64,000 nucleotides of DNA, from positions 38,440,001 to 38,504,000 of the forward strand of contig OX597838.1 of the NCBI GenBank assembly GCA_951406725.2, read 5' to 3'. The position numbers were made by a program, and so were the translations under genes. Every line of letters starts with the position of its first letter. Positions within the stretch are counted from its first letter, which is position 1. The notes below the pieces were generated by a model, which was not told the DNA's origin, ran no database searches, and was given only the letters and a program-made list of their open reading frames with translations. Source of the DNA: Octopus vulgaris. Its lineage: Eukaryota. Shown piece after piece: positions 19,444 to 36,236 of the stretch.

Positions 19444-20205
19444 AAGGCGGTGAGCTGGCAGAATCGTCAGCACGTCGGGCGAAATGCTTAGCGGTATTTC
19501 GTCTGCCGCTACGTTCTAAGTTCAAATTCCGCCGAAGTCGACTTTGCCTTTCATCCTTTCAGGGTCGATAAATAAAGTACCAATTACGCACTGGGGTCGA
19601 TATAATCGACTTAATCCGTTTGTCTGTCCTTGTTTATCCTCTCTGTGTTTAGCCCCTTGTGGGTAGTAAAGAAATAGGTATTTCGCCCGTCGCTATGTTC
19701 TGAGTTCAAATTCCGCCGAGATCGACTCTGCCTTTAATCCTTTCGGGGTCGATTATATAAGTACCAGTTACGCACTGGGGATGATATAATCGACTTAATC
19801 CGTTTGTCTGTCCTTGTTTGTCCCTTCTGTGTTTAGCCCCTTGTGGCTAGTAAAGAAATAGGTATTTCGTCTGCAGCTACGTTTTGAGTTCAAATTCCGC
19901 CTAGGTCGACTCTGCCTTTCATCCTTTCGGGGTCGATTAAATAAGTACCAGTTACGCACTGGGGTTGATATAATCGACTTAATCCGTTTGTCTGTCCTTG
20001 TTTGTCCTCTCTGTGTTTAGCCCCTTGTGGGTAGTAAAGAATTAGGAATTCCGTGTGTCTTTACGTTCTGAGTTCAAATTCCACTGAGATCGACGTTGCC
20101 TTTCATCCTTTCGGGGTCGATAAATTAAGTACCAACTGTGTACTGGGATCGACCTAATCGACTGGCCCCCTCTCCAAATATTTCGAGCCTTGTGCCTAGA
20201 GTAGA
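19444..20205 (+). mobile_element. SINE family B four-unit array (184-bp period)
   Basis: One head; units restart at 19494, 19678, 19862 and 20046; the whole array is flanked by AAATATGATAGT(G/C)TCAG. Confidence 0.92.
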
Positions 20206-20323: not shown

Positions 20324-21432
20324 TCTGGTTGGCATCCAAGTTCCCGCCGTTTTCTTTTTAAATTTTGGAATCTATTTTGTTTTTGTTTTTTTTTTTTCGA
20401 GTTACTTTTCGATAATTTAGAAAAACGAGCATTTTCGACACCTCCTTTTTGCTTTTAATCAAGGTTCTAAGGCCGCAAAAGCTGCTCGCAACATTTGTGC
20501 TGTGTATGGAGAGGGTGCCAAAACTGAAAGAACCGCTCATTCTGACAGTCCAATTGAGTTCGATGAAGAGCAATTAAACCAACTTATGCACGAAAATTCT
20601 CCTCAAACGACAAGGGGAACTAGCAGAGAAAATGGAATGCTCCCACACTGCTATAGAGAAGCATCTTCACTCGATGGGAAAGGTTCAGAAGTATGAAGCC
20701 TGGGTTCTGCATGCTTTAAGTGACAACAACAAAAATCAACGAGCCACAATCTCCGCTGGTTTTCTTGCTCGTCACCGCTCAATTCATGGACACAAGCAAG
20801 GATTTTTATACCAAATCCTTACTGGCAACGAAAAATGGTGCCTGTACATCAATATGAAGCAGCGTAAGGAATGGCTTAGCCTCGGTGAACAAGCGACACC
20901 GCGCGTGAAACAAGACATTCATCCACGTAAAACGATGTTTTGCGGATGGTGGGGCTGGGAAGGTATTATCCATTCCGAATTGCATGAATGGAACCAAACG
21001 GTCAACGCGGAACTCTATGTTCAACAGATGGAACGACTCAACATGGCTATTCAAGAGAAAATACATAATCGGCAACTTGGAGTTCTTCTGCTGGACGACA
21101 ACGCCCGCCCTCATGTCACCAATATGACCAAAGAAGCCATTCAAACGCATAGTTGGGAAGTGCTAACACACCCGCCGTAATCTCCTGATTTGGCACCAAC
21201 GGATTTCCACCTCTTTCGATCTCGTTCAAATGCTATGCGCGGAGTTTCGCTCAGTACTGGTGCACAATTGAGAGTTTGGCTGGGTCAAATTTACGGGTCA
21301 AAATCGGGTGATTTCTACCAACGAGGTATTGAAAATCTTGTTGGACGTTGGGAAGAAGTTGTAAACAACAAGGGTGAATACTTTAAAAAAATTAAATTTA
21401 AAATAACGGCGGGAACTTGGTTGCCAACCTAA
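20324..21432 (+). mobile_element. mariner (DD34D) transposon, pseudogenised
   Basis: TIRs GGTTGGCA(T/A)CCAAGTTCCCGCCGTT with TA flanks; motifs ILTGNEKW, DNARPH, HPP*SPDLAPTDFHLF. Confidence 0.95.
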
Positions 21433-32164: not shown

Positions 32165-32769
32165 AATCCTTTCCACTATAGGCAAAATGCCTGAAATTTG
32201 GTGGAGGGGAATAATCGATTACATCGACCCCAGTTTTCCATTGGTACTTAATTTATCGACCCCCGAAAGTACGAAAGGCAAAGTCGACCAAATTTGAACT
32301 CAGAACGTCAGGGCGGACGAAATGCCGCTAAGCATTTCGCCCAGCATGCTAACGATTCTTTACTGCCCATAAGGGGCTACACACAGAGGGGAGAAACAAA
32401 GACAGACGAACGGATTAAGTCGATTATATCGACCCCAGTGCTTAACTGGTACTTATTTAATCGACCCCGAAAGGGTGAAAGGCAAAGTCGACCTCGGCGG
32501 AATTTGAACTCAGAACGTAACGGCAGACGAAATACCTGTTTCTTTACTAACCGCAAGGGGCTACACACAGAGGGGAGAAACAAAGACAGACGAACGGATT
32601 AAGTCGATTATATCGACCCCAGTGCGTAACTGGTACTTATTTCATCGACCCCGAAAGGATGAAAGGCAAAGTCAACCTCGGTGGAATTTGAACTCAGAAC
32701 GTAGCGGCAGACGAAATACCGCTCAGCATTTCGCCCGGCATGCTAACGTTTCTGCCAGCTGGCCGCCTT
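32165..32769 (-). mobile_element. SINE family B three-unit array
   Basis: Two units with the common tail, followed by a diverged unit with the alternative tail. Confidence 0.9.
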
Positions 32770-33470
32770 GGTTTTAATAAAATAATAAAAGCAAGTGACC
32801 AGCTATATTACATACTGATGAACAATACATTTGTGCTTATTCAGAGAATCAGCTGTAGAAAAAGAACTTGATGCGATAACTGATTCTAGTTTTGAAATCA
32901 GCCAATTTTAGTCTAAATCAAGTGAAAAAGCAAACTCAACAGGAATTATGTTCAAAATTGTTCCCCTGTGAAACGATTCAAAATGAACGCAGTAATGTTC
33001 AATAGAACGGAAAATCTATTTGGCAGCAACACTGCATTCCAACCTACACGACAACGGCTATTAGGTTTGCGCATGCGTGTGCGTATTTTTTCTTTTTACC
33101 TGTTTCAGTCATTTGACTGCGGCCATGCTGGAGCACCGCCTTTAGTCGATCAAATCGACCCCGGGACTTATTCTTTGTAAGCCCAGTACTTATTCTGTCG
33201 GTCTCTTTTTGCCGAACCGCTAAGTGACGGGGACGTAAACACACCAGCATCGGTTGTCAAGCAATGCTATGGGGACAAACACAGACACACAAACACTCTC
33301 ATACATATATATACATATATACATATATACGACAGGCTTCTTTCAGTTTCCGTCAACCAAATCCACTCACAAGGCATTGGTCGGCCCGGGGCTATAGCAG
33401 AAGACACTTGCCCAAGAGGCCACGCAGTGGGACTGAACCCGGAACCATGTGGTTGGTTAGCAAGCTACTT

Positions 33471-35735
33471 TATTTCAAAACATTTGCCATAAAGGCAGTA
33501 CACAGATTAAGTTAGCTTTGCGGGCTGGACGAGGACATTAATGAAGTGAATGATAATGAAAGACAGATGATAAGGATGGGAGAAGACAAAAAGCGCCCGC
33601 CGACTTTCGCTTCTCTAAAACATTGTTCTTTTTAAAGATAAACACAAAACGAGGTATTAAACCTCTTACAATTTTTCCAATTTTTGGACTTAGCAGTCCA
33701 TTATTAATAAAAATACAAAACGAGGTATTAAACCTCTTACAATTTTTCAATTTTTGGACTTAGCAGTCCATTATTAATACTAACAGTTCAATAATTACAT
33801 ATCGTCCTCGAAATAGCTTGTGCCCGCGCCCTCCACCATCAACCACGCCTCCCTCAGAACGTAATCAAGTTCCGAGTTCGCGTCGCCCGGGACCAAGCTA
33901 TAATCTTCATTGAGCTCCTTTAGCCCAAGCGTTACGTCGAACGCCACGGCCTCCACAGCTATCTGCGGAGGCCATTCGGGGTCCTGTGTGAAGGCTAAAG
34001 GTGCTCCCTTGTGGTGCTCTTCCATCATTTTTTTTTTCAATTTCTCCTCCTCTATAGAAGAGGACCAATACGTTCAGTTCTTTCGTTGGCGGCACAGTTC
34101 CCGCCAACGGTATTCCTTCTCTTGTCGGTGGCACAACCCCAACCGACGTAGTTCCGGGACATTCCGGTGCTACACTGACAGCCGGTAATGTCCCGTTTTT
34201 CTTCCTCTTTTTCTTTTTTTTCCCTTTTCAACTGAGGGAGGGTGCGTCTCCTCCGTGGCTGGAAGATTCGCCTTCCTCTCCTCATCCCTATTATCCTTTG
34301 GTGAGCACCCATTGTTGCTCACCTTCCTCTTTCGGCCTCTGTTTGAGGAGTCCTCTGCTTTCTCGGCCGTTATCGTTCCCTCTTCTAGAGGGGTTTTACT
34401 TAACTGTTCCGGGATCCTATTTTGTTCCCGAGGACAGTTCTTCTTTATGTGGCCGGACTCCAAGCACCGATGACACTTAGGGGGGCGACCCTCAAGCATC
34501 ACCGGGTACCTGCACCCGGCCATTTTCAAAAAATCTGGAAGAACCAGATTGGCTGATTGGGTCCACAGGGTCAAAATTGCTTTTGACCCAACCCAAGCAG
34601 CCGCAGGAAGAACTTTTACATTAAGGAGCTTAGTTTCGCTGCCACCCAGACCCCGGCGGATAGTCTCCTCTATCCACTCGGGTTCTATGTCGGGTGGCAG
34701 CCCGCAAATCCAAGCTTTCATCAATTTCTTTTTTTTGTACGTGGGCAGGAATAAGATTTCCTTACCCTCCAGGGGTTTGCTAGCAAATTTGCAAGCCTCT
34801 TCAGGGGTGTCAAATAGCAACCACACCGTTGCATATTTGACACCCCTGGAAATGAATTTAATTGTTGGCAAATACTCTTCCAACTCCTTTTCAATTGCCG
34901 TCTTTTCGAATAGGGCGATGGTGTCGAGTGCCTTGGAGTAGGTTCTCAACACCACCGTCCTATCTTCACGGTCTTTTAACCACTTTTTAGGTGGTATGAT
35001 CTCCCATTCCAAAAGTTTGTTATTTTTCATTGCCATGTTTTTTTTTAAATATATTCAAATTAAACTCAAAAGCAGGAAGAAAAAAGTTCAAAAGTCCAAA
35101 TAAAATTTGATAGATTTTTGAAAAAACAAAAAGGAGAAAGCACAACAGAAGGGAAGAAATCAACGGAAAGTCGCAATAAAGAAAAAAAAAACAAAAGGGG
35201 GGGTTAAATGAAGTTCAAAAGAAAGTTAATAAACAGAAAAAACACAGCAAAAATATTCTGGCCTTGCGGTACTCCCGGCCTGGGTTGAACCTGGAACGCC
35301 GCAACTGCAACACAACCTCCACAAAAATGGGTCCGAAAGGTAATCCAATAGTGGCTTATTTTTATAATTTTCTTGCGAAGTACTCTGACAAGGGAATAAA
35401 TTCAACAAACCCAAACACAGCACTGGCTACCGCCAACGGTAATTTTAACAGTAACTGTATTGAATTCCGAGGATACGCCCCTCCACTGTTTTTTCTTTTT
35501 TTTTCAATGAACACAAAAACGGCAGCCGCCGAGAGCAGGCGAAATTGTCTCAGAGTTGGACACAACTTACTGAAATAATAATTGGCACGCAATAAATTAT
35601 GCCCAACTCACAATAAACAAAATCACTTACCTCGACAACTTTCCGTTTTTGGTCTTTTTTCTTTAATTGGACGGAGCTGGTTGACTCGCGTCCACTCTGG
35701 CTGAACAGGAAGCAACTGACTAACTGCGCATGCGT
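33471..35735 (-). mobile_element. ORF1-only non-LTR retroelement (HAL1-like, L1/Tx1-type)
   Basis: Perfect 15-bp TSD GTTAGCAAGCTACTT (33456-33470, 35736-35750); ~700-bp 5' UTR, one gag-like ORF, ~325-bp 3' UTR; no EN/RT motifs. Confidence 0.85.
33795..35036 (-). CDS. Gag/ORF1p-like nucleic-acid-binding protein with CCHC zinc knuckle (288 aa open; ~413 aa if two compensating homopolymer frameshifts are corrected)
   Basis: CHRCLESGHIKKNC (CX2CX4HX4C) preceded by RRM-like WICGLPPDI; the 33795-34040 ORF is in the same frame, bridged by an open alternative frame between the A-runs at ~34215 and ~34030. Confidence 0.8.
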
Positions 35736-36236
35736 GTTAGCAAGCTACTTACCACACAGCCACTCCTGCGCCTATATGTGTGTTTTTTATGCACACTTGA
35801 ACGTACGTGGCTTATTGATTAGGGCATTCAGTTCCCGATATTAAGGTCGTGAGTTCAATTCCTGGCAGCACGTTTTGTCCTTGAGAAAGACATAATTTTT
35901 CGCGGTGCTATAGTTCACTTCTGCATTCCAAAAAGCCAGCCTTGTCACTTGGTGGGTCATACTGAACCTCCCTGAGAACAACGTAAAGAGTGCGCGTAAC
36001 TGCGGAGTACTCAACAACTTGCACGTAAACTCCCTGAGTTTCGTTAGTCGTATCAACTGGAACCTTCTTTGGTGTGCCAGAGTGCCAGAGTGCCAGAGTG
36101 CCAATTATATATACATTCATACACACGAAAAATATTAACTGAAGGCCCACTTACTATGTCTAAGCAGAGTATATGGTTTCTAATACCTTGGGAGTGTCAT
36201 TATACCAATAATCAACACACACCGGTTCGTTTTTAC

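Follow-up and report, generated by a model that had tools for sequence, protein, structure and literature searches.

Non-autonomous LINEs that encode ORF1p only are a recognised class, in which HAL1 derives from L1, HeT-A from Jockey and Ag-Sponge from CR1, as summarised in PMC5786205. Members of the class keep the 5' and 3' ends of a LINE, are present in multiple copies and rely on the ORF2p of another element (PMC5786205, PMC5753468), a description that appears to fit the octopus element presented here. In contrast with these derivatives of the L1, Jockey and CR1 clades (PMC5786205), the octopus element has a Tx1-like ORF1, lacks poly(A) and is specific for a SINE. HeT-A, together with TART/TAHRE, resembles it in being ORF1-only, under selection and restricted to one target, at which head-to-tail arrays are mixed with an RT-bearing partner; as described in PMC5537684, however, HeT-A targets chromosome ends and serves the host, whereas the octopus element targets an interspersed SINE, makes a target-site duplication (TSD) and has a short 3' UTR. 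From Xenopus and crocodilians, Tx1 elements are known that have other transposons as their target, along with SINE passengers that share it (PMC4494074). In these systems (Tx1 in Tx1D in Xenopus, and Tx1-Mar with SINEU-3 in crocodilians) the target is a mobile element, there is a non-autonomous passenger and tandem insertions sandwich the TSD, as they do here. The targets named in the account of PMC4494074 are DNA transposons, LTR elements, snRNA genes and microsatellites, whereas the octopus target is a SINE; the passenger in those systems is itself a non-coding SINE, whereas the octopus passenger is a protein-coding half-LINE. R1Bm and SART1Bm, also APE elements with a specific site, have RNA that may base-pair with the target once it is cut, and accurate priming of R1Bm is reported to depend on target sequence downstream (PMC7265360). 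Priming by read-through target bases, as for R1Bm, would fit the absence of poly(A) in the octopus element. In the octopus, where we infer such read-through, the tail also carries a motif antisense to the target (see below) that has no counterpart in the available parts of PMC7265360. The literature searched contained no description of a SINE-targeting LINE or of a Tx1-derived ORF1-only family in octopus; the family may already have an entry in repeat catalogues (Repbase, Dfam). In the available parts of PMC13282606, L1-Tx1 families are given only as counts.

The window, a stretch of 64,000 nucleotides of the Octopus vulgaris genome, contains on its minus strand an insert of 2265 bp (33471-35735), with identical 15-mers on either side (33456-33470 and 35736-35750). 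The insert interrupts a SINE, of which uninterrupted copies are present elsewhere in the window. In the direction of the element, the order is the SINE head ending in GTGTGGT, AAGTAGCTTGCTAAC, the element, the 15-mer repeated, and the remainder of the ~400-bp SINE. The 5' UTR is about 700 nt long, and the 3' end, GAAATA, forms AATAAA together with the target. A tblastn search of the window with three ORF2 proteins returned no match to an endonuclease or RT. The original prediction, made from the letters of this DNA, had described an insert that splits a SINE, a long 5' UTR, an AATAAA completed by the target and the lack of endonuclease and RT, and was accurate on all of these points. Taken with the evidence given below, we consider it highly probable that the insert is a full-length, frameshifted copy from a large and old ORF1-only family residing at one SINE base, and that this family is likely copied in trans by a Tx1-like LINE with the same target base and 3' end. 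The features of the locus are collected in Table 1.

Table 1. Features of the interrupted SINE and of the ORF1-only element inserted in it (positions in the window).
Feature	Position	Strand	Basis or remark
ORF1-only non-LTR element, whole copy	33471..35741	minus	Consists of 33471-35735 together with the GCTAAC that the element carries at 35736-35741
AAGTAGCTT (9 bp), likely the true target duplication, 5' copy	35742..35750	minus	Junction analysis of the family; at the window locus alone inseparable from the 15-bp reading
3' copy of AAGTAGCTT, from which the SINE runs on	33462..33470	minus	
Element-borne GCTAAC, equal to target bases 10-15, rebuilds a usable landing site	35736..35741	minus	Target variants at positions 11-16 seldom copied 5'; stacked insertions
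5' piece of host SINE, with A-box-like motif at 35752-35762	35751..35772	minus	Motif by eye
3' piece of host SINE: B-box-like motif at 33429-33439, microsatellite, body, tail	33086..33470	minus	
CGCATGCGCA motif at the element 5' end, candidate internal promoter element	35725..35734	minus	Sequence
Intron-like GT..AG segment of 61 nt in the 5' UTR	35569..35630	minus	Retained in genomic copies
First part of ORF1, 288 aa: a predicted pair of RRM-like domains and, near 34430-34475, a CCHC knuckle, then low-complexity basic linker	34170..35036	minus	
C-terminal remainder of ORF1, out of frame here after the A-run near 34215	33795..34215	minus	
Tandem duplication of ~70 bp in the 3' UTR	33640..33780	minus	
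Conserved GTCCAGCCCG box, then a motif antisense to the top strand of the target (AAGCTA in this copy, extending up to GCAAGCTACTT in other subfamilies)	33509..33530	minus	
Terminal 27 nt common with the autonomous partner (22/27 identical), with TGCC-N5-GGCA inverted repeat and no poly(A) tail	33471..33497	minus	

Insertion is specific for one base of the SINE head, a site specificity that the original prediction had overlooked. All 30 loci of the family search end at this base, in the same orientation (L026 by way of a later protein search), and 210 of 215 exact 3' ends are joined directly to AAGTAG, without poly(A); two of the exceptions were fetched and are single-base variants, still within the SINE. 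The empty site, as an exact 29-mer of the SINE head, has at least 75,549 copies in the genome. The target SINE is ~400 bp long, dispersed, non-coding and of high copy number. A- and B-box-like motifs, recognised by eye, flank the insertion site; no tRNA signal was reported by ARAGORN on an interrupted copy or by Rfam on an intact copy. Ten inserts are on average 99.6% alike while their host SINE halves are only 91.9% alike, indicating that the insertions were independent, and the flanks past the SINE differ between copies. Head-to-tail arrays of up to seven ~2-kb units are present at single sites.

The flanking 15-mers had been read as a perfect 15-bp TSD. They are indeed identical, but nothing about them is particular to this locus: as SINE sequence, the 15-mer has 10 matches in the window at up to two mismatches, and across the family the duplication is mostly shorter. 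Positions 11 and 13 of the 15-mer are variable among SINE copies and, with a 15-base duplication, such a variant would be expected on both sides of the insert. Junction pairs were collected from 66 loci, four of which were dropped with a missing or shifted junction; in the 62 used, the variant was present on the 5' side in 2/14 cases for position 11, 1/16 for position 13 and 0/9 for positions 14-16. In 10 of 10 copies with another 5' UTR, AAGTAGCTT is followed by CTTACC (once ACTTACC), a sequence other than that of the target, and seven 5'-truncated copies share 1, 1, 8, 8, 11, 13 and 14 bases. From these junctions, the true duplication is mostly AAGTAGCTT (about 9 bp) and GCTAAC belongs to the 5' end of the element itself; this correction rests on the family, as the 9-bp and 15-bp readings give identical letters at the window locus. 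One copy (L005) has a complete 16-bp duplication followed by a second AAGTAGCTTTGCTAAC, as if its RNA had started inside the upstream target copy of the donor. GCTAAC is also an allele of the SINE site, found in 7/20 cases for the ORF1-only family and 18/25 for the autonomous partner described below (best-matching copies, possibly biased). A preference of the ORF1-only family for this allele is unsupported at 7/20.

The window element is a member of a family with many copies and not a one-off. Among the best 40 of 3273 candidates in a genome search, 26 (the window copy included) match from the 5' end at full length with 94-100% identity, and the other 14 are common from base 354 on, with different 5' UTRs. 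Multiple copies of ~2.25 kb with the same ends were thus found, as the original prediction had proposed; the distinct TSDs that it had proposed as well were not, because a single base of one SINE family receives all copies. The exact last 29 nt of the window element occur 215 times in the genome, and a looser tail pattern, covering the wider lineage, gives at least 857 junctions (0 for the reversed control). ORF1 homology, at ~45% to 100% identity, lies upstream of 28 of the first 30 of these 857 junctions, and RT of none. Copies running on into an ORF2, named beforehand as the observation that would speak for a deleted or prematurely polyadenylated LINE, were found at none of the ~150 loci read (sets of 30, 30, 60 and 30, with slight overlap). 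In one 30-locus set, from a protein search, 29 loci end at the junction and one breaks off, with no ORF2 downstream; the 60-locus set contains three ORF2 matches, all from neighbouring elements and none contiguous with the tail. Two protein searches with clade members covered 60 loci, none with an ORF2 downstream. Fused ORF1-ORF2 proteins were absent from public data at E 0.001 (weak evidence), and near-length homologues among public proteins are only two, both from Octopus sinensis. The element had been called young, which holds moderately for the window copy, whose closest other copy is 98% identical; a different cluster of copies averages 99.6%. Full-length copies make up 19 of 20 sampled. 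Copies that are 5'-truncated, with short TSDs and an intact SINE head, are also present and agree with the expectation for target-primed reverse transcription. Three further loci at the SINE site (L061, L082, L191) have internal deletions, with both ends kept and little or no ORF1; still shorter passengers therefore exist.

ORF1, taken to be intact in the original prediction, is broken in the window copy. The ORF starts at 35036 and ends after 288 aa, and a second frame continues to 33795; the frame is lost in an A-run near 34215, giving 288 aa compared with 412-414 aa in intact copies. An unbroken ORF of 412-414 aa is present in 8 of 30 close copies, and ~18 of the 30 (two rows parsed poorly) seem to be out of frame at the A-run. 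The loss of frame in the window may be due to slippage or to an assembly error. A single RRM-like domain and a CCHC knuckle had been proposed for the protein. The knuckle is matched weakly in the window ORF (zf-CCHC, E 0.0087, under the Pfam cut-off), but the AlphaFold2 model of an intact copy, built on a 17-row alignment, has two alpha/beta domains in addition to the knuckle (residues 10-205, pLDDT 70-89); the C-terminal half of the model has a pLDDT below 50 and is unreliable. In the PDB, every one of the best matches of the model is a protein with tandem RRMs, hnRNP A1 and HuR being examples; the scores are modest, with E about 1e-4. ORF1 is predicted to have two RRM-like domains, and not one, as well as a CCHC knuckle. 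It is 24-34% identical (E to 1e-28) to the ORF1 of two-ORF LINEs of the same genome, and the ORF1-only clade is without the N-terminal extension that the autonomous ORF1s have.

The ratio dN/dS over the ORF1 core is 0.12-0.19 between subfamilies, at a dS of 1.4-2.4 that is close to saturation. Among the eight intact copies of the window subfamily it is mostly about 0.2, with wide scatter for pairs with few changes and a slight low bias from the use of intact copies only. The comparison of copies, which the original prediction had suggested, shows purifying selection on ORF1 at a dN/dS of about 0.12-0.2. In a tree of 15 rows, four subfamilies group together with full support (100/100), and the long branch that carries them includes no two-ORF member. 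A second ORF1-only lineage (L167:7141-8376, minus strand) has a 412-aa frame about 27% identical to the window ORF1; it ends at the same SINE base and has a similar terminal hairpin, without the GTCCAGCCCG box. The two ORF1-only lineages may share an origin, with support of 49/81 in the tree. The ORF1 at L073 is chimeric, its first part being like subfamily B and its C-terminal part and tail like the window subfamily.

As for ORF1-containing non-autonomous LINEs in general, the family has an ORF1p homologue and no EN or RT, as well as fixed ends and the insertion marks of a non-LTR element; its 3' end is common with an autonomous LINE, although the common part is short and weak on its own. The comparison with HAL1 made in the original prediction is apt for the way in which the element works and fails for its parent type, which is Tx1-like and not L1. 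A strict assignment to HAL1 was rejected: there is no L1 ORF1 family match in Pfam, the protein has two RRM-like domains and a CCHC knuckle, and its homologues are the ORF1s of Tx1-like LINEs. HAL1 elements have a poly(A) tail at the 3' junction, whereas, as noted above, 210 of 215 ends of the octopus family join AAGTAG directly.

A search for an autonomous LINE sharing ORF1 or the 3' end, also suggested beforehand, was successful for the latter. The partner is a 5.44-kb LINE with ORF1, endonuclease and RT, found via a seven-unit array at the same SINE base. Its last 27 nt are common with the window element, with 22 identical (E 0.13 for the tail by itself). The APE, RVT_1 and zf-RVT domains are all above cut-off, and both ORFs are open at three loci (L147, L156, L162). 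Exact partner 3' ends number 108 genome-wide. All 25 of 25 partner loci end at the same SINE base, in line with the target-sequence preference of the Tx1 clade. The partner starts with GCTAAC, as does the ORF1-only element, and occurs in the same stacks as ORF1-only copies. Ten of its copies average 99.7% identity, with 94.9% for their host SINE halves. The partner ORF1 is only 29% identical to that of the window element and the two are not joined in the tree, so the partner is not the parent. The 5.44-kb LINE is nonetheless the likely enzyme donor for the ORF1-only element. Its description as Tx1-like is based on layout and target specificity; the layout (APE, RT, C-terminal zinc-binding domain, ORF1 knuckle) is also found in other L1-group LINEs and is not decisive for the clade alone.

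A zf-RVT search, from which many two-ORF LINEs with an ORF1 of the above 24-34% identity came, scored the best 150 of 25,803 candidates and the partner was reached through the neighbouring array; further partners may therefore exist. The 30 best zf-RVT loci were considered for this role and rejected, as they represent different Tx1-like families that have a different tail and are not linked to the SINE site. At least one more partner-like subfamily lies upstream at L220, with an ORF2 90% identical and a different tail. Other Tx1-like families (3' ends at L091-L120; L014 at ~560-760) end in CCCCTTGTGGGTAATAAAGAAAT, which closely resembles the tail of another abundant SINE, and some of them form 5.4-kb tandem arrays (G000 C2:73.04-73.07 Mb). 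At two further loci (L130:7187-9999, minus strand, and L143), tandem ORF1-only units with a spacing of ~1.8 kb are followed downstream by a different Tx1-like LINE; a match to the SINE target is absent, and these units are possibly a third half-LINE system.

The intron-like segment of the 5' UTR is full length in 100 of the 100 matches listed (138 in all), with the donor GTAAGT or GTGAGT, both consensus, and no retro-copy spliced at the nearest acceptor is present among the same 100. Contigs from three runs guessed to be RNA and one run of unknown kind cover the element, and two of the guessed-RNA contigs retain the segment; such contigs do not demonstrate that the element is transcribed or spliced. 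A 5' splice-site motif, GGTRAG, is found in each of several unrelated 5' UTRs (window 35569-35630, minus strand; L027 ~1263-1322; L014 ~1229-1290; the partner at L146), about 60-125 nt from the start of the UTR and usually with a pyrimidine-rich AG about 60 nt further. The segment may be an aid to the promoter that binds U1, or a retained intron. The CGCATGCGCA motif at the 5' end, which we take to resemble an NRF1 site, has a similar counterpart opening a second, unrelated 5' UTR. At least three unrelated 5' ends (L027-L030, L031, L033, L038, L041, L048) are found in front of one and the same young ORF1 and tail; the switch points of these mosaics are near a conserved GGGGCGTATCC motif, a pattern of 5' UTR swapping between subfamilies.

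In the 3' tail, at least 7 bases of GCAAGCTACTT are present in 39 of 59 distinct tails compared with 2.1% of shuffles, the 59 tails being related, picked by the adjacent motif and not independent. The antisense match amounts to 6 bases in the window subfamily and to 9 bases, at another position, in the partner; the second ORF1-only lineage has none. When tails were folded with 16 downstream target bases, the motif paired with those bases in three of the five tried.

From the shared site, tail, age and stacks, we infer that the ORF1-only element borrows ORF2p in trans. Transcription from an internal Pol II promoter would begin at the upstream target copy or slightly within it, and the RNA would open with target bases. 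The element's own ORF1 protein, with two RRMs and a CCHC knuckle, would be made and would favour its own RNA, as the selection on ORF1 suggests. The ORF2p of the partner would bind the common terminal ~30 nt and nick the bottom strand of the SINE opposite GGT^AAG. The RNA would read a few bases into the SINE, since the target completes AATAAA, and pairing of these bases with the primer would account for a 3' junction that is exact and has no tail. Joining at the 5' end may be helped by the target mimic, consistent with the 19 of 20 sampled copies that are full length. The first bases of the element rebuild the site, at which later copies and the partner stack head to tail, as seen in the junctions, mostly with the 9-bp duplication. 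The details of priming are less certain than the overall reading.

The same kind of element could be moved by a different, unseen Tx1-like family, perhaps the true parent with a closer ORF1. Such a family would account for the low identity of the partner ORF1 (29%) and for the long branch of the ORF1-only clade, with no two-ORF member among the 15 rows; there is also a related ORF2 with another tail at L220, and the searches scored the best candidates only. However, the known partner equals the youngest ORF1-only copies in age (99.7% versus 99.6%) and has the same base, the same GCTAAC start and common stacks, and none of the 60 loci from the protein searches with clade members has an ORF2 downstream. 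We regard an unseen donor as improbable. It is very unlikely that ORF1 is passive cargo, with each subfamily derived from autonomous LINEs by its own deletion and with a selection signal left from those ancestors. Internally deleted and ORF-less copies at the site indicate that not every insertion needs ORF1 in cis, and the 18 of 30 close copies that seem out of frame at one A-run (two rows parsed poorly) point in the same direction. Against this, dN/dS is about 0.2 among intact copies of the window subfamily that have no ORF2 (slightly biased downwards by the choice of intact copies), and the loci and tree rows examined include no autonomous member of the clade.

That every copy has the same SINE context and orientation might suggest that SINE and insert travel as a composite unit, or that the copies are segmental duplications. 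This explanation is largely refuted, and we give it next to no weight: the host SINE halves differ far more than the inserts (91.9% versus 99.6%, and 94.9% versus 99.7% for the partner), the flanks past the SINE differ, and 5'-truncated copies retain an intact SINE head. The idea of a one-off LINE, deleted or prematurely polyadenylated, finds nothing in the window copy in its favour apart from the frameshift and is refuted by at least 215 copies with the same end and by many subfamilies at 45-100% protein identity.

Returning to the trans-copied ORF1-only family, a broader proposal, which we offer as a speculation that may well prove wrong, is that of an old, three-tier parasite system, in which at least two ORF1-only lineages ride a Tx1-like LINE that has settled in the promoter region of a SINE. 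Both ends of the RNA would be tuned to the target: the target bases at the 5' end would rebuild the site and make full-length integration the rule, and the antisense tail at the 3' end would pair with read-through RNA or with the displaced strand, so that targeting would be partly RNA-guided. The 5' splice site, conserved and unspliced, may be part of the promoter.

With the octopus family, the short list of known ORF1-only retrotransposon lineages gains a Tx1-like member, and a SINE joins the targets known for site-specific LINEs. The young, intact pair of enzyme donor and passenger bears on the question of why a passenger keeps its own ORF1p under selection. The partner is also a candidate tool for targeted insertion, which is precise, mostly full-length, tail-less and directed to one base, with only ~30 common terminal bases. 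Each insertion parts the A- and B-box-like motifs, and the SINE copy that receives it would be silenced; for the SINE as a whole this matters little, with about 900 or more occupied sites versus at least 75,000 empty ones.

Two other features of the window were noted. An open frame of 200 aa at 20578-21177 (plus strand) is, by its look, presumably a fragment of a mariner-type transposase. A ~400-bp repeat is present at 19444-20163 and, inverted, at 32355-32769, with 88-90% identity and several tandem pieces near 19.4-20.2 kb.
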